Of a stretch of 64,000 bases of DNA, positions 5,790 through 30,618 are shown piece by piece. This stretch comes from Deltaproteobacteria bacterium (GTDB lineage Bacteria; Desulfobacterota; Desulfomonilia; UBA1062). Location: positions 28,302 through 92,301 of the forward strand of contig JAHDOV010000003.1 of NCBI GenBank assembly GCA_018434685.1. The letters run 5' to 3'. The position numbers were made by a program, and so were the translations under genes. Positions within the stretch are counted from its first letter, which is position 1. Every line of letters starts with the position of its first letter. The notes beneath the pieces are model-generated. The model was not told where the DNA came from. It did no database searches and was given only the letters and a program-made list of their open reading frames with translations.

Positions 5790-7151
5790 GTGAAAGACTT
5801 TAGAGCAACGCTTATCGGACTCGTGGTATTCAGTCTCGTCAGTGTACCGGCATTTCCGGCCGAGTATAAACCCGACGAGGTCATTGTGAAGTTCAAATCG
5901 GATCATCCCCTGACTGCTTCCATGGTGAGAGGTGACGAGAACCGGGCCATGACCGTTGCCGTGGACGACGCCCAGGAGGCAATCCGGACGCTCGAGACCA
6001 TGGAGGGTGTAGAGTATGTCGAGCCCAACTATGTGATCGAGGCGGAGAGCATACCCAATGACTGGCCGTATGAAAACAGCGAGTGGGAAGATACCGGTCT
6101 GCCCGGGGCCTGGGATCTCGTCGAGGAAGCCGGTCCCGGTTCCCAGGTGATTGTCGCGGTCATCGATTCCGGGGTCGATCTCGATCATCCGGAACTCGAG
6201 GACATCCTGATCTCGGGATACGATTTCGCGAACAACGATGCCGTCCCCGAGGATGACACCGGGCATGGCACCAGGGTCTGCGGCATACTCGGTGCCCTGG
6301 GAGATAATCTCTCAGGCATCGCGGGGGTCGCCTGGAACTGCGATATCGTTATCATGCCCCTGAAGTTCATGAAGAATAACGACGGCAAGACAACGGGGAG
6401 TCTCTCCGATGCCATCGACGCCATCTACTATGCCGTTGATCACGGGGCGGATGTCATAAATGCGAGCTGGGGCTTCTACTCCTACTCCGGGTCGCTGGAG
6501 GAGGCAGTCCGCTACGCCCGCGACCATGGGGTATTGTTCATTGCCTCTGCCGGCAATAAAGCCCAGGACAACGACACGAACGACCACTACCCGTCGAATT
6601 ACCCGTTGGACAACATCATCGCCGTAGCCGCCATGAACCGCTACAATGATCTCGCGTCGTTCTCGAACTATGGAGAGAACAGCGTGGATATCGCCGCACC
6701 GGGCGACGGCCTCAAAACCACGGATCTTGGGGGAGGCTATGCGAGCTGGGTATCGGGAACCTCGTTTGCGACCCCTTTTGTCACCGGGGTTGCAGCCATG
6801 ATGATCTCGCAGTTTCCGGATCTGGACTATCTTTCGGTTCGGGTTGCCCTGCTCGATGCCGCGGTGCTCGATGCGGGTTACAGCGAGAGGCTCCTTGAGA
6901 GCGGCGGGTGTGTAAATGCATACAATGCACTCCTGGCAGAGGAAGACGCGGATGTCTTTTCCAGGGCCTCGAGTGCTTCGGCCCAGTCTGATCCCACAGG
7001 GACAGGTTCTCAGGTCAGTGGCGAATCAGGAGGAGGCGGGGGCGGCTGCATGATCGAAAGCACGAGAAATGCAGGCAATGCCGCCGGTATGGTCATCTCC
7101 CTTATGTTGATAGTCTTGTTCCCCATGTTGCGCGCGAAACATCGGGAATAA
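5790..7151 (+). CDS. Secreted subtilisin-like serine protease (peptidase S8) with C-terminal Gly-rich/Cys-TM-basic tail
   Basis: Signal peptide, catalytic D (VIDSGVD), H (HGTRV) and S (GTSFATPFV) blocks. The tail is GGGGGGC followed by a hydrophobic helix and RAKHRE. Confidence 0.9.
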   Translation: MKDFRATLIGLVVFSLVSVPAFPAEYKPDEVIVKFKSDHPLTASMVRGDENRAMTVAVDDAQEAIRTLETMEGVEYVEPNYVIEAESIPNDWPYENSEWEDTGLPGAWDLVEEAGPGSQVIVAVIDSGVDLDHPELEDILISGYDFANNDAVPEDDTGHGTRVCGILGALGDNLSGIAGVAWNCDIVIMPLKFMKNNDGKTTGSLSDAIDAIYYAVDHGADVINASWGFYSYSGSLEEAVRYARDHGVLFIASAGNKAQDNDTNDHYPSNYPLDNIIAVAAMNRYNDLASFSNYGENSVDIAAPGDGLKTTDLGGGYASWVSGTSFATPFVTGVAAMMISQFPDLDYLSVRVALLDAAVLDAGYSERLLESGGCVNAYNALLAEEDADVFSRASSASAQSDPTGTGSQVSGESGGGGGGCMIESTRNAGNAAGMVISLMLIVLFPMLRAKHRE

Positions 7152-8639: not shown

Positions 8640-9527
8640 GTGTGCACTATGGATGGATGCCTTGATTCCTTCGTGAATCGGTATAAGATGTATCTCATGG
8701 ACCAGAAAGGCCTGTCGCCCGAGACATACCGGGCATATCTGGGCGATGTCGAGAATCTGCTCGCCTTCCTCGACAGACGCGGTGTCGACATCCCCGATCG
8801 CCTTGTCGTACGCTCATACCTGTCGAACCTCCACAGCCGCTACGACAGGTCCACCATCAACCGCAAGCTGAGCGCGATCAAGGGTTTTTTCGATTTTGTC
8901 ATGACCCAGGCCGACCTCAAGGTCAACCCCTTCTCGCACGTGAGATCGCTCAAGAAGAAAGAGGCCCTGCCCACGTTCTTAACCGCTGATGAGATGGTCG
9001 ATCTCATCGAAGCCACGGCCGACCTTCGCGACCGGGCGATCCTCGAGCTCCTCTATTCCACCGGGATCAGGGTGGGGGAGGTGGAGACCATGAACTGCAT
9101 GGACATGGACGTGAGAGCAGGCTTCATCATGGTGACCGGCAAGGGGTCCAAGCAGAGAAAGGTCCCGGTGGGGGACCGTGCCGTTGACGCTGTCCTGCGC
9201 TACCTCCACACGAGGGGCATCGACGACCCCATCTACTGCCCCGAACCGCTCTTTCTGAACACGCGGGGCAAGCGGCTCACCACCAGGAGCATCCGGCGCG
9301 TGGTAGAGAGGTGGTCCCAGTTCGTTGCGGTCAGCCGGCACGTGAGCCCGCATGTCATCCGGCATACCTTTGCAACCCACATGCTCGATGCCGGTGCAGA
9401 CCTGCGGTCGATCCAGGAGATGCTCGGCCATGCGAGCCTGTCCACGACCCAGCGGTACACGCATTTAACCCTGGACAAACTGATGGATGTGTATGATAAG
9501 GCTCATCCTAAGGCAAAGGAGGAGTGA
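8640..9527 (+). CDS. xerC: Tyrosine recombinase XerC
   Basis: C-terminal catalytic region [38 protein letters not shown] (R-H-R-Y). Conserved xerC-hslV-hslU synteny. Confidence 0.9.
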
Positions 9528-10060
9528 TGGAGATACGCGGAACCACAATACTCTGTGTGCGCAAGGCAGGGCACGTGGTGATTGCCGGCGATGGTCAGGT
9601 GACCATGAACAATACCGTGCTCAAGGCGAATGCCCGCAAGGTGAGAAAGATGCATGAAGACCAGGTGCTCGCCGGATTCGCCGGTTCGACATCCGATGCC
9701 CTGACCCTGTTCGAGCGGTTTGAAGCCAAGCTCAAGGAATACCGGGGGAATCTCACCCGTGCGGCAGTGGAGATGGGCAAGGACTGGCGAACCGACCGGG
9801 TCCTGAGGAAACTCGAGGCCCTCATGATCGTTGCCGATGCCTCGAAGACCTTTCTCCTGTCCGGCACCGGCGATGTGCTGGAGCCCGACGACGATGTGTG
9901 CGGTATCGGTTCGGGCGGAGACTATGCCGTTGCGGCTGCCAAGGCGCTGATCAGGTACACGGATTTTGGTGCCCGGGACGTGGCGGAAAAGGCCATGGGG
10001 ATTGCGTCGGATATCTGCATCTATACAAACAAAGCAATCATTTATGAGGAACTGTCATGA
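9524..10060 (+). CDS. hslV: ATP-dependent protease subunit HslV
   Basis: N-terminal Thr of TTILCVRK after Met-processing is proteasome-like. Overlaps hslU. Confidence 0.93.
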
Positions 10061-11367
10061 ATGATCTCACACCGAAACAGATAGTGGCCGAGCTCGACAA
10101 GTACATTGTCGGCCAGGACAAGGCAAAGCGTGCCGTTGCCATCTCGCTGAGAAACCGCTGGCGCCGCCAGCAGGTCAGCGACGACATGCGGGAGGATATC
10201 TACCCGAAAAACATCATCCTCATCGGCCCGACCGGGGTGGGCAAGACCGAGATAGCCCGGCGACTGGCCAAACTCGCCGATGCACCGTTTATCAAGGTGG
10301 AGGCCTCGAAGTTTACCGAGGTCGGCTATGTGGGCAGGGACGTGGAATCCATTATTCGCGATCTCATGCGGCTCGGGGTCCAGATGGTGCAGAAGGAGGA
10401 GAGCGAGAAGGTCAGGGACAAGGCCCGGGACATTGCCCGTGAGCGGGTTCTCGACACCCTTCTCCCGGTTCAGAAAGATGCACAGGCCCATTCCGACAGC
10501 AGGGAGAAACTGCGGCAGATGCTCGAGGACGGGCTGCTGGACGAGCGGATCATCGAGGTGGAGTCGCGGGAGACCTCGATGCCCTCCATCGAGATCTTCT
10601 CCGGACAGGGGCTCGAGGAGATGGGCATCGACTTCAAGGAGATGTTCTCCAACATCATGCCGAAAAAGACCCGCCGGAAAAAGATGAGCGTCAAGGATGC
10701 CCTGGAATTTCTCACCAACCAGGAGGTCGGCCGCCTGATCGATATGGAAAAGGTGACCGAAGAGGCACGGGCGCGCGTGGAAAACACCGGCATCGTGTTT
10801 ATCGATGAGCTTGACAAGGTCTCTGGCAGGGAGTCGACCCATGGCCCCGATGTCTCCCGGGAGGGCGTCCAGAGAGATCTGCTGCCCATCGTCGAGGGGA
10901 CGACGGTCAACACGAAGTTCGGACCGGTGAACACCGACCACATCCTGTTCATCGGTTCCGGGGCATTCCATGTGAGCAAGCCCTCCGACCTCATCCCGGA
11001 GATGCAGGGCCGGTTCCCCATCAGGGAAGAACTGAACCCCCTGACCCGGCAGGATTTCATCAGGATCCTGGTGGAACCCAAGAATGCACTGATAAAACAG
11101 TACGAGGCACTGCTCGCAACCGAGGGCATCAAACTCGTTTTCAGGGACGAGGCCATATCCGAGATTGCCCGTATCGCCGAGTATATCAACGACCACACGG
11201 AGAATATCGGTGCGCGCAGGCTCCATACCGTGCTCGAGAAGCTCCTGGACGAGATCTCCTTCGAGGCCAACGATCTCACCGGCGAGGTCGTGGTGGATGC
11301 CGACTACGTGAACAAGAGACTGGACCCCATCATGCAGAAGGAAGACCTGAGCAGGTATATCCTCTAG
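10057..11367 (+). CDS. hslU: ATP-dependent protease ATPase subunit HslU
   Basis: Walker [16 protein letters not shown] and the AAA+ ClpX-like architecture with an I-domain. Confidence 0.95.
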
Positions 11368-11552
11368 GGTCCCCAGGGCTTCGGGATCTGAGGCACGCAC
11401 CAGGGCCCGGCTCGGGGTGCACGGCAGTGACCGAACCCTGTAAGCTCCTGAGGGAGTGCCTTGTCCTTGAACTGTCCGGACAATTGAACCGGAACGCCTT
11501 TTTCCCCTGCACAAGAATATCGGCTGTGGTAATATAGCGCCAGGGAGGGAGT

Positions 11553-12524
11553 ATGATCTCAAAAGGAAAGTTTGTGACAGAGCTGCATGACGGCGACTCC
11601 GTAGGCGCCGTATTCCTGGTCTCCGAACGGAGGGTGCTCGTCGCACGCAACGGGAAACCCTATGCAAAACTTGTGCTTACCGACAAGACCGGCGACGTGC
11701 AGGGCATGATCTGGGAAGATGCCAGGGCACAGGTCTCGGGTATCGAACCCGGGGATGTCGTGGGTGTCCGTGGCGCGGTGGAGTCTTATGAAGGCCGGCC
11801 CCAGATGAAGGTCGAGAAGATCGTGAAGCTCAAAGAGGAAGAGGTCGATATGTCGGCGCTTGTCCGCACGGTGAAAGGTGATACTGCCTCCATGAGGGAA
11901 GAGGTTGAGCAGATAATCCAGGCGCTTAAGAACAGCCACCTCAAAGAGCTTCTGGGCAGGCTGTTCCTGCGGGACGGCATCAAGGACGCCTTTGTCAAGG
12001 CACCCGCTGCCAAGGGGATACACCACAACTACATCGGCGGGCTGCTCGAGCACACCCTGACGGTACTGAAAAGCATCGAGGCCCTCTATCCTGTCTACCG
12101 GCACCTCGGCATCAACCGCGATCTGCTCATCGCAGGGGCGATCGTCCACGACATCGGCAAGATATACGAATACACCTACAGCAGGATTATCGACATGACC
12201 CCCATGGGGAGGCTCGTCGGCCATATCTACCTGTCCGCGCACATGGTGGATCAGGAGATCGCGGGGATGCAGGATTTTCCCGAAGAGCTGAGGCTCCAGC
12301 TCCTGCACCTGATCCTCGGTCACCACGGCCAGCTCGAATTCGGCTCGCCGAAACTGCCCATGACGAGAGAGGCCATGATGCTCCACATGCTCGACGATCT
12401 CGATGCGAAGCTCATAGGCTTTTCCTCGATCATCGAGTCGACCCCTGAAGAAGAGGACTTTACTACCTTTTCCAGCGTGTATAATCGCTACCTCTATACC
12501 AAGAGGTACGAAGACGAGGACTGA
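11553..12524 (+). CDS. OB-fold + HD-domain phosphohydrolase (YhaM-like 3'-5' exoribonuclease family)
   Basis: The N-terminal OB-fold is followed by the HD motif IVHDIGK and downstream His/Asp residues. Confidence 0.75.
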   Translation: MISKGKFVTELHDGDSVGAVFLVSERRVLVARNGKPYAKLVLTDKTGDVQGMIWEDARAQVSGIEPGDVVGVRGAVESYEGRPQMKVEKIVKLKEEEVDMSALVRTVKGDTASMREEVEQIIQALKNSHLKELLGRLFLRDGIKDAFVKAPAAKGIHHNYIGGLLEHTLTVLKSIEALYPVYRHLGINRDLLIAGAIVHDIGKIYEYTYSRIIDMTPMGRLVGHIYLSAHMVDQEIAGMQDFPEELRLQLLHLILGHHGQLEFGSPKLPMTREAMMLHMLDDLDAKLIGFSSIIESTPEEEDFTTFSSVYNRYLYTKRYEDED

Positions 12525-12572: not shown

Positions 12573-13154
12573 ATGAAAAAATCATTCAGCAATGAACAGG
12601 GACAGGCCCTGGTAAGGCTGGCGCGGCATACCATCGAGAAACGACTGGGGCTGGGACCCCGGGAACCCGAGACTGTTTCCGGGCAGCTCGATGACGATAT
12701 CCTGAAGGAGAAGCACGGCGTTTTTGTCACGCTCAACAAGCACGGTGATCTGCGGGGATGCATCGGGTCTCTCGAGGCACGGGAATCCGTGCTGGAGGGG
12801 GTGAAGCACAATGCCCTCAATGCAGCGTTTCACGATCCCAGGTTCAGGCCGGTGGACCGCTCCGAAGTGGGTGCCCTGGAAATCGAAGTGAGTATCCTGA
12901 CCGAGCCGGAACCGCTGGAGTACCGTGACCACAAGGATCTCCTGAAAAAACTGCGTCCCGGCCTCGACGGAGTGATTATCAGATCCGGGTATGCCGGTGC
13001 CACGTTCTTGCCCCAGGTCTGGGAGCAGTTGCCGGACGAGGAGGACTTCCTGGCCCACCTCTGCGCCAAGGCAGGGCTCCCGGCAGACGCATGGAAAACG
13101 AAGAAGCTCGAGGTCTCGACCTACCAGGTTCAATGCTTTGAAGAACCCGGATGA
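12573..13154 (+). CDS. AMMECR1-domain protein
   Basis: The motif HGVFVTLNKHGDLRGCIGSL matches the AMMECR1 family core. Confidence 0.85.
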   Translation: MKKSFSNEQGQALVRLARHTIEKRLGLGPREPETVSGQLDDDILKEKHGVFVTLNKHGDLRGCIGSLEARESVLEGVKHNALNAAFHDPRFRPVDRSEVGALEIEVSILTEPEPLEYRDHKDLLKKLRPGLDGVIIRSGYAGATFLPQVWEQLPDEEDFLAHLCAKAGLPADAWKTKKLEVSTYQVQCFEEPG

Positions 13155-13281: not shown

Positions 13282-13469
13282 ATGTTACTTTCTTTGCTTG
13301 CACAAGAGAAAGTAACCAAAGAAATGCACCCCACGAAGCCGCCCTTTCGGGTGCGTTCGCTCACTCGGGAAAAATCCGTTCGCAATTAAACTCGCTCCAT
13401 TTCATTCCGCTCAGACAAAATTGCTCATTTTCCGGATTTTTCCCTCCCTCGCTCACCGGCTTCGAGGGG
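13282..13469 (+). repeat. Left terminal inverted repeat (~190 bp, hairpin-rich) of cassette
   Basis: It begins ATGTTACTTTCTTT...AGAAAGTAAC (a 10-bp-stem terminal hairpin). It contains GGGAAAAATCCG-N55-CGGATTTTTCCC and ends at ...CGGCTTCGAGGGG. The reverse-complement copy at 16300-16491 is ~80% identical. Confidence 0.85.
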
Positions 13470-13637
13470 ACCCATCCCGGGTGCTGAACCGCGACTCAAC
13501 AGGAAAATATTGGAATCTGCGTGCTCTTTGCCATAAAGAAGACAACCAACCTCTTATCAACGAACTGCACATATCCATTGGAGATCTTCAAAATAATCCG
13601 TCTTGGGAAATTGAATAGTTATCGCAGTTATATTTAC

Positions 13638-14405
13638 TTAGAAGTTTGAGATGCAAGAGGAGCGCATGGACATGACACATAGTTTTTCTCGCTTAGGGTA
13701 AGGTTGATTGTGAGCTAACATTAATTTTCTATATTTCTTTACCGTTCTAGGCGTAGCGGCAATCATTATGTATCTGTGTTTTGGGGTTAAAGGTATAAAT
13801 TTTAACTTTGGGTCATATTCACGGAGCTTTGATAAATCCCTTGTTCCAAATTTTTTCCTAACTTTCCATCCGGACATTTTCTTCCCAAGAATATAATAAT
13901 TACCCTGTCCTTTGGGATCCGTAAGACCAGTATAAATAGCATTTGATGCCTGATAAATAGTGCCAATCTCATAAAATTGAGTATCAGCATAAGCGATAAT
14001 TATTGATGATCCTAACTTATTATACATTGCCCTATTGGCTCGAGCAATTAAATGAGTTGCAGTGCATATAGGAGCATTGAAAGAACAGCCACCACGACAA
14101 AGTTGGATTATGTTACATCTGAGTTCCTTGGCTAACTGACTTATCCATCCACGATTTTTAGAAAAACATGTTGTTCCATATGAAACTACACCAAGTAATT
14201 TATCATTATGTTTCAATCCCCAATGCCATACCCCTAAACCGACATCCCCTAAATGCTCATATATCCCCATGAATTCTTGAGCCTGATTTCTGGGAATATT
14301 AACAAGAGTAGTATGACTAAGCTCAGATGAAGATAACATTATATATCTTATGTAATTTTTGGTTCTTTTCCTAGAATTAAGCATCCCAATAAAACTGTAG
14401 CCCAT
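13638..14405 (-). CDS. Hypothetical protein (255 aa; unknown function; cassette cargo gene 2)
   Basis: Long ORF in AT-rich DNA, 3' to and overlapping (or abutting, if the start is the internal Met at 14339) the 344-aa ORF. Basic C-terminus. No motif I can assign; weak Rx5H near the C-terminus. Confidence 0.5.
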   Translation of the reverse strand: MGYSFIGMLNSRKRTKNYIRYIMLSSSELSHTTLVNIPRNQAQEFMGIYEHLGDVGLGVWHWGLKHNDKLLGVVSYGTTCFSKNRGWISQLAKELRCNIIQLCRGGCSFNAPICTATHLIARANRAMYNKLGSSIIIAYADTQFYEIGTIYQASNAIYTGLTDPKGQGNYYILGKKMSGWKVRKKFGTRDLSKLREYDPKLKFIPLTPKHRYIMIAATPRTVKKYRKLMLAHNQPYPKREKLCVMSMRSSCISNF

Positions 14406-15382
14406 TTTAACAGTTCAAATAGTGATGACAATGGAAAGCTTGCTAAATCTTGCAATACAATTAAGACGGCAAGGATGAGTGCTATTATAAAAGTTTTAGA
14501 AATTAACATTTGAGATGATATTTTCAATGGATATTCCAATGAATATAGTATGTTACTCTCTTGATATACAAATACTTCGATAAAAGACCGTATATCCGAT
14601 ATCTTAAATGAGCTTTTGGGCGTAAATAAATTTTTAACGCTGTTTGTTTTAGCACCCAATACTATTCTTCCTGAGCTATGGGGAAATAACGGATTGTTAA
14701 ACTTGATTAAAATTGATTTATCAACACTGCCTTTATCAGGGTCATAATATGTAATATTAAAATCATATGTATTATCAGATTCTAAAGTAATAACATTTGA
14801 TTGCACTGGTAATAGTTCTTTCCCCTTAATTGTTTCATCTTTTAAGGATATTTTCAGTAGCGGCAAATGATCTTCTGATAATTTCTTTGTCTTTGATAAA
14901 TTTTCTACAACTATAAACCAATAACTACTGTCGAAAGATAGCTCATCGGAATATTCTTTGCCTACTTGCATATAATAACCATCGTTAATGTTACAAGGAT
15001 CTTGCCCTACTAGCTCTGGTATGCCTTTAACCGATTTCTTAAGTTGATAAGTGAACTCCTCATAATTTTCAGTCTGGCAATAATCTCCAAATGAGCATTC
15101 TACATGTAGGCGATTAGCGTTAACTTCAGAGCTTAAAACTTTTGCTTTTCTGATGGGGTAATATTTATAAGAGCCTTCATTGAATCTATCTACATAAATT
15201 ATTAAACAATCCATTCCTGATAAATCTTTTCCAACCAATTCAGAGGGGACATTTTGACCTATAGTGTAGCGAAACGTTGTAGTATAATAATTTGGAAAAG
15301 ATAATATTTTAGAAATATTATTCTTGTAAAGAGGTCTTAAAGCTGAATTAAAAACATACAGTATTTCGTTCTCCATAACCAC
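14348..15382 (-). CDS. Hypothetical protein with ~270-aa soluble N-terminal domain and two C-terminal TM helices (cassette cargo gene 1)
   Basis: 344-aa ORF with an AT-rich promoter region upstream (15383-15720). The C-terminal hydrophobic segments are FIIALILAVLIVL and WATVLLGCLILG. No recognisable catalytic motif. Confidence 0.55.
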   Translation of the reverse strand: MVMENEILYVFNSALRPLYKNNISKILSFPNYYTTTFRYTIGQNVPSELVGKDLSGMDCLIIYVDRFNEGSYKYYPIRKAKVLSSEVNANRLHVECSFGDYCQTENYEEFTYQLKKSVKGIPELVGQDPCNINDGYYMQVGKEYSDELSFDSSYWFIVVENLSKTKKLSEDHLPLLKISLKDETIKGKELLPVQSNVITLESDNTYDFNITYYDPDKGSVDKSILIKFNNPLFPHSSGRIVLGAKTNSVKNLFTPKSSFKISDIRSFIEVFVYQESNILYSLEYPLKISSQMLISKTFIIALILAVLIVLQDLASFPLSSLFELLKWATVLLGCLILGKEPKIT

Positions 15383-15723
15383 CTACAAAAAATGATTTCA
15401 TTAGAAATATAATTTTATGATATTAATTGTATAACAATAATTTGAAATGATATCTATAATTATTGAATATCTAGTGAAATATCACTCTCTTTATGATTTA
15501 ATGCTTATTCCAAGTCTATCAAAATGATAGAGCACGTGCCATACTGTGTAATCAGATTTTGATTGAGATTTTGGATACATATCACAAGGAAATCTTTCAC
15601 CCATAATATGAGTCCTTTTGATCCTATCTCCATTTCGTTCCGACTTTACTCAATTGCTCTTGATTTGGTGATACATCAGATTAAATAATGAATAATGTAA
15701 TCCGATTTTTAAGGTGAAAAAAC

Positions 15724-16113
15724 ATGAAAGAGATCGAAATAGAACTAGTTATATTTCTATTAATTATTTTATGTTCATGCACAACAATTAAAACATCACA
15801 AGAAATAATACCAAAAAACAATTTAATATATTCTGCACCATACGATAAAGTGTATAACTGCTCAATTAATGCCCTCATGGCTCTTGGATGGCAAATAACG
15901 CATTCAAATAAGGATGAGGGCTTGATCCAAGCTAAGGCACCTATGTCCTTGTGGACTTGGGGAGATCTAATTACAGTACATATTATTAAGGAATTCCCTG
16001 ATAAGGTAAGAGTAGATGTGACATCAGGCTCACCACAACAGTTTGACTGGGGTAAAAACAAGAAGAATATAGAAGCATTTTACGAAGAGTTAAAAAAGCA
16101 ATTAGAAGATTAA
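15724..16113 (+). CDS. Small secreted/lipoprotein-like hypothetical protein (cassette cargo gene 3)
   Basis: N-terminal hydrophobic helix ending ...LIILCSC (a lipobox-like Cys), then a 105-aa hydrophilic domain. Divergent from the two-gene operon. Confidence 0.45.
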   Translation: MKEIEIELVIFLLIILCSCTTIKTSQEIIPKNNLIYSAPYDKVYNCSINALMALGWQITHSNKDEGLIQAKAPMSLWTWGDLITVHIIKEFPDKVRVDVTSGSPQQFDWGKNKKNIEAFYEELKKQLED

Positions 16114-16299
16114 ATATATAATTAGCCAGCCCTAAGTGCAGTTAAAGGACCGCTTAATCAGTTGTCCGATACAACAACTACATATAACGTGCCATTATCG
16201 GGATTCGCCTGATAGTGAACATAATTTTGATATGTGACATCTTCCTCTGGTTCAAAAGTGTGTGATCGTACTGGAATAACTCGGCACCAGTCCCAATCC

Positions 16300-16491
16300 C
16301 CCCTTGAAGCCGGCGAGGGAGTGCAGGAAAAATCCGAAAAACGAGCACTTTTGTCTGAGCGCAGCACAGCTGCGCGAGTTTAAGTGCGAGCGGATTTTTC
16401 CTGTGCGAGTGAGCGTACCTGCCAAAGGCAGGCGGCTTCGCGGGGTGCATTTCTTTGGTTACTTTCTTTATGCAAGTAAAGAAAGTAACAT
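16300..16491 (-). repeat. Right terminal inverted repeat (~190 bp) of cassette
   Basis: Its reverse complement aligns with 13282-13469, with the same order of hairpins and compensatory substitutions in the stems (CAGGAAAAATCCG...CGGATTTTTCCTG versus GGGAAAAATCCG...CGGATTTTTCCC). Confidence 0.85.
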
Positions 16492-16787: not shown

Positions 16788-18173
16788 ATGGCTAAGAAGA
16801 TGATGGCTGCTGTCCTGATCATGTCTGTATTTCTTGGGTTTGCATGCACTGCCAAAGCGCAGGATCCTGGCCCGTACGAGGGAGACTGGGTGGCAGATGT
16901 GGTGGAAGCGGTTCTTCCCTCAGTGGTGAATATCTCCTCCATGAAGACCGTGGTGTATCAGTCGCCGCTCTTTTCCGACCCGTTTTTCCGGGAGTTCTTC
17001 GGCGGCGGGCTCGCTCCCCAGGAGCGGGTGCAGCGGGCGCTCGGTTCAGGGGTCATCATATCCGAAGACGGGTACATCATTACCAATAACCACGTCGTGG
17101 GCGGCGCCGACAAGGTGGAGGTGCGGCTTTCGGACGAACGGGTCTTCGCCGCGCAGATTATCGGCACCGACCCCAAGAGTGACGTGGCCATCATCAAGAT
17201 CGATACAGGAGTGCTTCCTGCAATCAAGGTGGGAGATTCCTCAAACCTGAGGATCGGGAGCTTCGTCCTGGCCGTGGGCAATCCCTTCGGCCTCGAACAG
17301 ACCGTGACCATGGGGATCATCAGTGCGCTGGGAAGGTCGGGGCTCGGCATCACCGACTATGAGAACTTTATCCAGACCGATGCGGCCATCAACCCCGGCA
17401 ACTCGGGCGGGGCCCTGGTGAACATGAAGGGTGAGCTCATCGGGATAAACACGGCCATCCTCTCGAGGACCGGCGGCAGCGTGGGGATCGGATTTGCCAT
17501 TCCCATCAACCTGGTCATGGGAATCAAGAAGAGCATCGAGCTCTACGGCGAAGTGGTCAGGGGATGGCTCGGCGTGACCGTGCAGGAGATCACCCCCAAG
17601 ATCGCCGAGGCCCTGGCGCTGCAGACCACGAGGGGGGTCCTGATTTCCGAGGTGACAAAGGGTTCCCCTGCCGAAAAGGGCGGCATCAGGCAGGGAGATG
17701 TCATCGTCTCCCTGGACGGAAAACCGGTACACAACTCTGCTGCCATGAGGTTCCTCGTGTCGGAACACCTCCCGGGCAGTTCCATAAAGGTGGAGGTGAT
17801 AAGGGACGGCAGGCCCAAGACGCTGAGCGTGACCATCGGGGATCTTGCAAAGGCGCAGGAACCCGAGGAGAAATTGATCATCGAGGACAACAGGTTCCTC
17901 GAGGGAGCCACGGTTGCCGACATTACCCCTGCCACCCGGGAAACCCTCGAGATCGGTGAGGAAGTCGAGGGGGTGCTCGTCATTGCGGTGAGGGACAACT
18001 CCGCAGCTGCCCGGACCGGATTGCGGCCCGGTGATGTCATTGTCCAGATCAACCGGCAGAAGACCGTAGGGCTCAAGGCATTCGAGGCCGTGCTCGAGGG
18101 GCTCACCGGAAGAAAGATGAGCATCAGCCTCTACCGGCAGGGCATGGTCATGACCCTGACCATCGTGAGATAG
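16788..18173 (+). CDS. degP: Periplasmic serine endoprotease DegP/HtrA (trypsin domain + 2 PDZ)
   Basis: Signal peptide. Catalytic triad regions HVV, D (DVAIIKI) and GNSGGAL. Two PDZ-like C-terminal repeats. Confidence 0.93.
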   Translation: MAKKMMAAVLIMSVFLGFACTAKAQDPGPYEGDWVADVVEAVLPSVVNISSMKTVVYQSPLFSDPFFREFFGGGLAPQERVQRALGSGVIISEDGYIITNNHVVGGADKVEVRLSDERVFAAQIIGTDPKSDVAIIKIDTGVLPAIKVGDSSNLRIGSFVLAVGNPFGLEQTVTMGIISALGRSGLGITDYENFIQTDAAINPGNSGGALVNMKGELIGINTAILSRTGGSVGIGFAIPINLVMGIKKSIELYGEVVRGWLGVTVQEITPKIAEALALQTTRGVLISEVTKGSPAEKGGIRQGDVIVSLDGKPVHNSAAMRFLVSEHLPGSSIKVEVIRDGRPKTLSVTIGDLAKAQEPEEKLIIEDNRFLEGATVADITPATRETLEIGEEVEGVLVIAVRDNSAAARTGLRPGDVIVQINRQKTVGLKAFEAVLEGLTGRKMSISLYRQGMVMTLTIVR

Positions 18174-30121: not shown

Positions 30122-30379
30122 GATCTTTTCTGATAACCAACCACTTCAGTCTAAAGGCTTTTTTGATTATCGATTCACCAGTCCATTTATTCGTTAATAT
30201 TTTTCCCCATCCAGGCGATACGGTCACTATACGGGCCCGGCATGAGCCCGGGCGTGTTCTTTGACAATCGAAGAAAGAGAGCCATGTGTATTCTTTGAAC
30301 CCAGAGAATAGACATGGGTAAAAGAGTGACGGGTGCATAAGGGCCGACCAGGGGCGGATAATCAACCGCCCTGCCTTTA

Positions 30380-30450
30380 GCCAAACCACAGGCGACTGTG
30401 GGACGGAAAGCCACGGGTCTGCTTTTGCAGACAGCCGGGCCGCCTCCTCA
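30380..30450 (+). promoter_or_regulatory. c-di-GMP-I (GEMM) riboswitch-type aptamer, tandem copy 1
   Basis: GCCAAACC-ACAG-GCGA-CTGT-GGGACGGAAAGCCACGGG, then the hairpin GTCTGC-TTTT-GCAGAC. It aligns with the Vc2 aptamer core GGCAAACC-[GNRA hairpin]-GGGACGCAAAGCC.CGG. Confidence 0.65.
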
Positions 30451-30518
30451 GCCAAACCAGGGGCAACTCTGGGACGGAAAGTCACGGGTCCGCTTCAGGG
30501 CGGACGGCCGGGCTGCCT
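30451..30518 (+). promoter_or_regulatory. c-di-GMP-I (GEMM) riboswitch-type aptamer, tandem copy 2
   Basis: GCCAAACC-AGGG-GCAA-CTCT-GGGACGGAAAGTCACGGG, then GTCCGC-TTCAGG-GCGGAC. Confidence 0.65.
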
Positions 30519-30548
30519 GAGAAGGTTTCAACAGCAGCAAGGATTCAC

Positions 30549-30618
30549 GCCAAACCAGGGGTAACCCTGGGACGGAAAGCCACGGGTCCGCTTCAGCGCG
30601 GACAGCCGGGTTGCCTGG
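30549..30618 (+). promoter_or_regulatory. c-di-GMP-I (GEMM) riboswitch-type aptamer, tandem copy 3 (27 nt upstream of start codon region)
   Basis: GCCAAACC-AGGG-GTAA-CCCT-GGGACGGAAAGCCACGGG, then GTCCGC-TTCAGC-GCGGAC. The GNRA loops vary between copies (GCGA/GCAA/GTAA) while the stems co-vary. Confidence 0.65.

Follow-up and report, generated by a model that had tools for sequence, protein, structure and literature searches.

Miniature inverted-repeat transposable elements (MITEs) and mobile insertion cassettes (MICs) have inverted ends derived from insertion sequences (ISs), occur with or without passenger genes and encode no transposase. ERIC/IRU sequences and the Correia elements of Neisseria are interspersed palindromic repeats, each confined to a single lineage and without cargo, which are co-transcribed with their neighbours and alter mRNA processing or stability according to orientation. 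In IS200/IS605 elements the ends are not inverted repeats; their subterminal hairpins fold on the same strand, TnpA and TnpB are encoded inside, and the TnpB omega/reRNA is a structured pseudoknot RNA read outward from the element end. Repetitive extragenic palindromic (REP) sequences, with bacterial interspersed mosaic elements (BIMEs) and REPINs, are mobilised by the Y1 HUH transposase RAYT and form structured palindromic inverted pairs that are intergenic and multicopy and for which single-strand folding is relevant; REPs also act as RNA barriers to 3' exonucleases. An individual REP is a single, lineage-specific hairpin of 20–40 nt that carries a GTAG or CGTC tag (PMC3733652). Here we describe a 3.2-kb cassette of foreign genes in a 64,000-nt stretch of a Deltaproteobacteria bacterium genome (contig JAHDOV010000003.1, positions 28,302–92,301; the whole stretch is hereafter the window), whose hairpin-dense inverted arms had been picked out by a first-pass annotation of the sequence. 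We are confident that these arms are the ends of a non-autonomous, cargo-carrying palindromic mobile element belonging to a pan-bacterial family.

By comparison with MITEs and MICs, the family shares inverted arms, cargo-free multicopy forms of a few hundred bp, transposase-free passenger versions and presence/absence polymorphism between strains; it differs in having arms of at least ~190 nt of covarying helices, with a pseudoknot and a mirror third strand, in an outer module that is nearly identical across phyla, and in that no target-site duplication or parental IS was found. Unlike REPs, the units are multi-helix and ~190 nt long, lack the GTAG/CGTC tag, carry a cross-phylum module and enclose cargo; no RAYT gene was seen in a scan limited to part of the window. 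In contrast to IS200/IS605 and its PATE derivatives, the copies are inverted and neither a TnpA nor a TnpB gene was found; there is no sequence relation with ERIC or Correia repeats. Integron cassettes carry one direct attC site with R''/L''-L'/R' boxes (RYYYAAC...GTTRRRY), whereas two inverted units are present here and GTTACTT misfits GTTRRRY. By analogy, then, the layout would be that of a MITE or MIC and the folded repeat, co-transcribed with its neighbours, would be like a REP, ERIC or Correia sequence. Three other likenesses were tried and rejected: XerCD/dif, prompted by TTATGTTA at the ends in the window, lacks a XerC arm, and other copies do not have the motif; resemblances to the Rep-binding element of the adeno-associated virus inverted terminal repeat and to the Tn3 inverted repeat extend over 7–8-mers only; and the TTAC/AAAG motifs of IS608 occur by coincidence.

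Structure and covariation of the inverted arms

The cassette is palindrome-shaped, with ~190-nt inverted repeats at 13284–13469 (outer end to interior on the plus strand) and 16300–16489 (outer end to interior on the minus strand) around a core at 13470–16299. At each outer end the similarity starts with TTATGTTAC, and it dies away ~190 nt inward; it comprises two blocks, 13307–13343/16431–16467 (97% complementary) and 13350–13469/16300–16419 (78%), and over a 267-column alignment the arm copies are 84% identical, with 41 of the 192 unit columns differing. The 26-mer AGAAAGTAACCAAAGAAATGCACCCC occurs exactly twice in the window by comparison with 0.00 occurrences expected (100 shuffles). Each arm reads, from outside to inside, as an outer (T) hairpin of the form GTYACTTTCTTTG-loop-CAAAGAAAGTAAC; a linker; bases that pair with the T loop; an enclosing stem; a small hairpin; and a long hairpin with the apex consensus AACTCGC-(variable hairpin)-GCTCARACA. 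Folding exceeded that of shuffled sequence for the left arm on the strand as written (plus, z −4.06) and its opposite (minus, z −4.67), and for the right arm on the strand as written (minus, z −7.36) and its opposite (plus, z −6.87); none of 200 shuffles folded as well in any of these four runs.

The two copies were compared under each other's minimum free energy (MFE) structures. With the right copy's structure (61 pairs), 46 pairs were unchanged, 8 had changed on both sides with pairing kept, 5 were broken and 2 fell in gaps; with the left copy's, 44 were unchanged, 3 double-changed and kept, 3 broken and 1 in a gap. One-sided changes were seen under neither. Three double changes are common to the two structures: the small hairpin has C-G/U-A, and the long stem has G-C/A-U at its base and A-U/C-G in its inner helix. 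The suggestion that paired stem arms change together between the copies is thus borne out (3–8 double compensatory changes, zero one-sided), and the three stems named in the first-pass annotation were all found. Its second pair of hairpins, however, needs correction: the left-hand GCACCC...GGGTGC (AATGCACCC/GGGTGCGTT, 13323–13331/13349–13357) is present as a stem but is not the counterpart of the right-hand GCCTGCC-TTT-GGCAGGT, whose left-hand homologue is GCCC-TTTC-GGGT, each arm of the right hairpin having an insertion of 3 nt. GCACCC...GGGTGC is an alternative pairing that appears in neither predicted fold of the left copy and lies outside the family model.

The helices are conserved by covariation across phyla. 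Homologous covarying repeats were found in large numbers, and selection on secondary structure, which had been proposed from the two copies, is strongly supported by covariation across 88 homologous units and by arm-swap tests. In an alignment of these 88 distinct units, made by (and hence fitted to) a covariance model, 89.1% of cells were paired by comparison with 65.5±0.5% after shuffling, double changes were present at 45 of the 49 pairs, and the covariation score was 0.386, against 0.096±0.004 for shuffled alignments (0/500 reached it) and at most 0.055 with the partners slid. Because that alignment is model-fitted, alignment-free tests were added on 39 units: the long hairpin scored −39.7 kcal/mol with its own partner and −23.7±0.8 when partners were swapped between units, and the enclosing stem −22.3 and −17.1±0.5 kcal/mol respectively. 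MAFFT and RNAalifold, applied to diverse units, had recovered part of the structure and were replaced by the model-based alignment and these tests. The inner-helix sequences of the four closest copies are GCAATT, GCACTT, GCGGCTC and AGCAAGCC, each of them with a perfect complement.

The left arm (13284–13469) is one complete unit, matched at full length with 189.5 bits by model R2, and its minus, outward-reading strand is the one predicted to fold. Its T hairpin (13284–13316; GTTACTTTCTTTG-loop-CAAGAGAAAGTAAC; 58.1 bits over 13284–13332 with model R1) has the stem GTTACTTTCT/AGAAAGTAAC at 13284–13293/13307–13316, and is followed at 13317–13329 by the linker CAAAGAAA and then the loop-complementary bases TGCA(C); positions 13317–13324 form the proposed third strand of a triplex on the basis of mirror-register covariation. 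The 5' half of the enclosing stem (13329–13341; CCCC, A, CGAAGCCG) pairs with 13457–13469 (CGGCTTCG, A, GGGG). Within it lie the small hairpin (13341–13352; GCCC-TTTC-GGGT) and the long hairpin (13367–13444), which has an outer stem GGGAAAAATCCG/CGGATTTTTCCC at 13367–13378/13433–13444, an inner stem GCAATT/AATTGC and a conserved apex at 13388–13417 (AAACTCGC...GCTCAGACA). The right arm (16300–16489) is likewise one complete unit (R2, 186.9 bits), reading outward on the plus strand; its long-hairpin stem is CAGGAAAAATCCG/CGGATTTTTCCTG at 16324–16336/16391–16403, and its outer hairpin at 16458–16489 (GTTACTTTCTTTA-TGCAAG-TAAAGAAAGTAAC; R1, 65.4 bits) is preceded on the plus strand by the proposed Hoogsteen strand TTTCTTTG at 16450–16457.

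The T module and the strand that folds

The T loop pairs with the bases that follow the linker, in the topology of an H-type pseudoknot. The sequence of the T stem is near-invariant and that of its loop variable, with the bases after the linker complementary to the loop. In 107 distinct modules the longest complementary run between the loop and the downstream bases averaged 3.93 by comparison with 2.56±0.09 when permuted; runs of at least 5 nt occurred in 36% of modules versus 5% of permuted ones, and loop pairing in a fixed register gave a covariation score of 0.135 versus 0.063±0.014.

Linker and stem also vary together. The outer A-run of the stem's 3' arm and the proximal A-run of the linker had lengths of (3,3) 100 times, (4,4) 11 times and (5,5) twice, with 1 discordant case; the pyrimidine arm changes along with both, and the inner runs correlate (Spearman 0.61, p ~1e-12). 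This relation is always mirrored and never direct, as an intramolecular triplex would need it to be, and an alternative Watson-Crick hairpin is thereby excluded. Read along the outward strand, UUUCUUU comes first, followed by CUUUCUUU, the loop and AAAGAAAG. An order of this kind is the arrangement for U.A-U and C+.G-C triples, in which loop 1 of a pseudoknot lies in the major groove. To judge from these patterns, the T module is probably a triple-helix pseudoknot. Described RNA triple helices, both the H-type pseudoknots with loop 1 in the major groove (SAM-II, telomerase RNA) and the triple helices at 3' ends of the ENE/MALAT1 type, likewise have U-rich, U-rich and A-rich strands in the correct parallel register, and the resemblance extends to a single C aligned with a single G and to the A-rich strand being 3'-most. 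They differ in that they belong to a riboswitch, to telomerase or to eukaryotic and viral RNAs, whereas the triplex here is predicted, and the T module has no sequence or Rfam match with them.

Raw folding energy favours the outward strand in 38 of 39 units, and composition-independent tests still favour this outward-reading strand as the one that folds. When helix arms were aligned in a way that favours neither strand, 45 isolated transition mismatches would read as G.U on the outward strand by comparison with 12 on the other, and G.U flanked by Watson-Crick pairs was counted 51 times on the outward strand and 10 times on the other. At position 3 of the T stem, 44 units have U-A, 36 have C.A (G.U on the outward strand) and 3 have C-G. 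A further asymmetry is seen in sister units, that is, units without the AACTCG apex, in which GGA hairpin loops make up 216/433 on the outward strand versus 13 on the other (perfect-stem hairpins). The loop forms are GGA, UGGA, AGGAU, AUGGAU and CAGGAUG, and we take these to be CsrA/RsmA-type binding hairpins. Sister units packed with GGA are of the Lysobacter, Xanthomonas and Stenotrophomonas type (L125, L201, L209, L217, L244, L253, L281 and ~120 other units). In the window itself, a Mom-family operon in the cargo runs out through the left arm and a 129-aa gene out through the right arm; the outward strand is the sense strand for the Mom operon in the left arm and for the 129-aa gene in the right, so both units would sit at the 3' ends of divergent cargo transcripts.

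We therefore consider a reading to which we give a little less than an even chance: that the arms act as outward-read structured RNA at transcript 3' ends, capped by a triplex pseudoknot. On the outward strand the T module would adopt an H-type pseudoknot fold in which loop 1, rich in U (UUUCUUU), occupies the major groove of the CUUUCUUU/AAAGAAAG helix and forms U.A-U and C+.G-C triples. Transcription would begin in the AT-rich middle of the cargo and leave it through either arm. At the 3' end of each transcript the arm would take up a compact fold, protecting the RNA from 3'-to-5' decay and insulating the cassette from its surroundings; spread of the element would depend on an enzyme acting in trans, or on recombination between resident copies. 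Of the two explanations offered in the first-pass annotation, the evidence leans towards a structured RNA made from each end (outward strand, sense orientation, GGA loops), whereas recognition of the IS200/IS605 type does not fit inverted ends and the absence of Y1 or TnpB genes.

Several observations weigh against this proposal. An intrinsic terminator is predicted on the outward strand of neither arm; the short cargo-free pairs have no gene to stabilise; apparently solitary units have a neighbouring gene pointing into them in 40 of 68 cases (versus 28), not a significant excess; and target-site duplications were seen neither in the window nor in Caballeronia or Ralstonia. The evidence for the triplex is covariation. 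Most of the outward strand's advantage of 10.6 kcal/mol is due to base composition (shuffles −78.4 versus −69.8; z −4.81 versus −4.35), and the wobble asymmetry is missing from the model-fitted alignment (124 versus 112), which is fitted to the other strand; strand-biased C-to-T mutation by deamination, rather than selection, could also produce it. The small-hairpin loops are of the UNCG type on the inward strand and C-GNA-G on the outward, the latter being a stable motif in DNA, and GGA loops are few in the window-type unit (6/54).

A serious rival account is that the arms are single-stranded DNA (ssDNA) structures and that ssDNA is the form, or an intermediate, in which the element moves, the folded T module and hairpins being recognised by an enzyme in trans, either of the HUH/Y1 type like RAYT or TnpA or a structure-specific recombinase, with the helices kept for transposition and not for a role as RNA. 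We regard this as possible but doubtful. It would suit an element that is multicopy, palindromic and strain-polymorphic, as a mobile element should be, and helices that covary within arms, which recognition of double-stranded DNA (dsDNA) terminal repeats would not need; the extreme conservation of the T module across phyla suggests a specific protein partner. DNA would fit the wobble asymmetry and the triplex register equally, as no mismatch is better tolerated in DNA than G.T and DNA can form T.A-T triplexes, and the C-GNA-G loops of the outward small hairpins are a very stable DNA triloop. However, no HUH, Y1 or other transposase was found in the ~ten cargos or the window segment examined, and the strand that folds at one end of the element is opposite to the one that folds at the other, whereas both IS200/IS605 ends fold on one. 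Hairpins with GGA loops are an RNA-protein motif without a known role in DNA, and variants of the T module keep the three-strand register while changing sequence, which points to a structural rather than a sequence-specific constraint. On balance we favour outward-read RNA over ssDNA recognition for mobilisation.

Distribution, cargo and genomic setting of the family

Matches to the outer hairpin were found on megaplasmids of Ilyobacter, Ralstonia, Caballeronia and Burkholderia, and a scan with the exact pattern in a genome collection (one genome per species) gave at least 120 loci. Beta- and Gammaproteobacteria, Desulfuromonadales, Bacteroidota, Selenomonadales, Clostridiaceae, Spirochaetota and a metagenome-assembled genome of Uhrbacteria (CPR) are among the matches listed; a metagenome scan for the window's own subtype added 51 further loci. 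Model R2, built from the two window arms and their closest cousin on metagenome contig L276, found full-length units in 60 loci, with matches over positions 1–176 at 50–112 bits in Ralstonia, Thiobacillus, Gallionella, Comamonadaceae and others, showing that the whole architecture is homologous and not the tip alone. No match was found in a phage collection, nor was a T module found by BLAST in E. coli genomes, where the low-complexity filter may hide the module. Rfam gave nothing at the arms, either at the gathering threshold or with E up to 10, nor did Pfam with translations of the repeat. A name for the family was not found in the searchable literature by sequence string, by description or in the supplements of Geobacter genome papers; reverse translations of the FLWLLSFGEAKESN type are, we believe, familiar as spurious open reading frames (ORFs), and curators may know the repeat informally. 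The T hairpin is a recurrent contig end in public short-read assemblies (L229, 6680–6737; many of L238–L288), and contigs that end inside a hairpin are expected of a multicopy repeat.

A lineage-specific segment extends outward beyond the T hairpin by ~30 nt in Thiobacillus, 45 in Ralstonia and 65 in Caballeronia and is missing from the window element. In Caballeronia (L112) the outer flanks match Rfam family RF02421, Bp1_Cand684_SIPHT, a candidate Burkholderia small RNA (sRNA), at 6058–6175 on the minus strand and 6713–6820 on the plus strand (48.6 and 43.3 bits); no other Rfam family was matched in relatives. These matches lie on the outward strands and overlap the last bases of the T stem. 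The candidate was positive by RT-PCR in B. pseudomallei (PMC3521395). RF02421 covers the lineage-specific outer segment, models neither the T module nor the unit and has no assigned function; from these alignments, the 'sRNA' family looks like part of the repeat element.

Copies usually occur as inward-facing pairs, and 18 of the 26 pairs detected with a hidden Markov model (HMM) span 432–755 bp; partner detection in this count is incomplete, the covariance model having found more partners. One Ralstonia replicon has copies in 11 places and Caballeronia sp. J97 has 4 modules in a stretch of 8 kb, while in Xanthomonas maliensis (L155, 6384–7149) three T modules ~310–400 nt apart lie in the same orientation, in tandem and not facing inward. 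The Ralstonia glgB-glgX spacer (L230, L232, L233, L234) is polymorphic: long alleles contain a whole ~600-bp element and short alleles one outer hairpin, the difference being a ~500-bp centre between two inverted CCCC-NNNN-GGGG hairpins. This is consistent with deletion or insertion at the palindrome centre. No direct target duplication was present at this locus or in Caballeronia.

Larger pairs enclose cargo of lower GC content than the flanks, without a transposase. The cargo consists of RelA_SpoT proteins in L195 and L217, an IrrE/M78 peptidase with a helix-turn-helix domain plus a partner in L168 and, by reading of the sequence without a family scan, a McrBC-like pair in L179 (GC 0.37 versus 0.50); L276 encodes a ~300-aa protein with a possible HEPN-like motif, likewise by reading of the sequence, and several other loci carry small unknown proteins. 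No autonomous IS with the same ends was seen among ~230 loci. The ORFs that come first on the interior side of units look for the most part like housekeeping genes (no family scan), and one fragment resembles the N-terminus of an IS30-family transposase.

In the window the cargo core (13470–16299) has a GC content of 25–38% over most of its length by comparison with ~51–62% in the host flanks, and scans of its ORFs with Pfam, NCBIfam and PADLOC found no transposase or recombinase gene. The Mom-family ORF (13638–14405, minus strand; PF25680, E 2.5e-16) is 255 aa as listed; the public gene call is 210 aa, which places the start at 14270, and P0121 is 100% identical at 210 aa. Upstream of it a partner gene (14348–15382, minus strand) encodes a 344-aa protein with no match in the same three databases. 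An AT-rich spacer (15383–15723, GC 25–30%) separates these from a divergent 129-aa ORF with a hydrophobic N-terminus (15724–16113, plus strand), which also has no family match in them; promoter-like sites, by consensus match only, are present on both strands of the spacer. Elsewhere, Mom-family genes in L289 (3836–5732), L292 (3722–5717), L293 and L294 are preceded by an uncharacterised gene, the partners being 344–384 aa with the window included; this gene order is common to L289–L294 and the window partner is homologous to that of L289 (28% identity, E 3e-25). As these homologues keep the partner and no T modules lie beside them, the cargo is an independent two-gene module captured between the arms, and cargo and carrier are separable.

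The element sits downstream of an AMMECR1 gene (12573–13154) and upstream of an HtrA-type protease gene (16788–18173), and is the only pair in the window by both the covariance model of the outer module and the exact 26-mer search. The order xerC-hslV-hslU-(OB-fold/HD protein)-AMMECR1 (~8650–12524) is conserved in the nearest relatives (L229; L235–L237) at 71% identity. Conserved synteny stops exactly at the position of the element and is not conserved downstream in the nearest relative. An empty insertion site was not found, the nearest relative being 71–74% identical with synteny lost downstream; of the proteins sought for this purpose, AMMECR1 is carried by a single other contig, which ends inside a T hairpin, and neither the HtrA protein nor either Mom protein form is on record. 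Elsewhere in the window, 30370–30618 contains three tandem copies of ~70 nt (at 30380, 30451 and 30549), of which Rfam calls c-di-GMP-I riboswitches at 30370–30447 and 30539–30618; the middle copy is uncalled though 91% identical to the third.

Three further explanations were considered. That the arms are ordinary dsDNA terminal inverted repeats of a DDE-derived, MITE-like element, with incidental hairpins, we consider improbable. Inverted arms, small cargo-free forms, many copies and the lack of a transposase would all be expected of it, and a TA dinucleotide can be read at both window junctions; however, this TA belongs to the inverted repeat (TTAT/ATAA) and other members of the family lack it, there is no direct target duplication at the window junctions any more than in Ralstonia or Caballeronia, and ~190 nt of nested helices with 45 of 49 pairs covarying, an asymmetric wobble and a mirror third strand are unexpected of dsDNA sites.

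Marginally less credible still is the idea that complementarity is maintained by mechanism, through hairpin-templated repair or gene conversion between arms, in which case covariation would be uninformative as to function. In its favour, the element as a whole is a nested palindrome, and the short Ralstonia allele would fit an event at its centre. Such processes, however, act between the arms of a palindrome and would yield neither a pseudoknot, a mirror-register linker and conserved unpaired junction and apex motifs nor a 4:1 wobble bias on one strand, and the window arms are 21% diverged with each keeping its own helices. Finally, that the repeats are crossover sites of a site-specific invertase and the 2.8-kb segment an invertible switch is very unlikely, for although the segment between them has divergent genes, it neither contains nor adjoins a recombinase gene (the nearest, xerC, is at a distance of ~4 kb within a conserved xerC-hslVU context), the divergence between the arms is 21% and the same arms occur elsewhere as pairs of a few hundred bp with nothing to invert.

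Implications for the repeat family

Returning to the proposal of outward-read structured RNA, we suggest, speculatively, that the T module is a bacterial counterpart of the triple helices of the ENE/MALAT1 type, a self-contained U.A-U/C+.G-C triplex pseudoknot capping the 3' ends of outward transcripts. Under the same tentative scheme its carriers would be pan-bacterial palindromic 'cassette carriers' that move small defence or accessory genes between phyla, and the variable inner hairpins would be exchangeable RNA payloads, such as the GGA-loop arrays of Xanthomonadales-type units that could titrate RsmA/CsrA.

If this is true, a repeat of many phyla that breaks metagenome assemblies, and is presumably a source of spurious ORFs, would have its architecture defined and could be searched for with a model. 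Among interspersed bacterial elements it would be the first to be built around an intramolecular triple helix, and it would be a transposase-free carrier that drops Mom-family, RelA/SpoT-like, IrrE-like and McrBC-like modules into intergenic sites. To our knowledge, sRNA sponges or other antagonists of RsmA have not been identified in Xanthomonadales, and the GGA-rich sister units would be a concrete candidate for this role.

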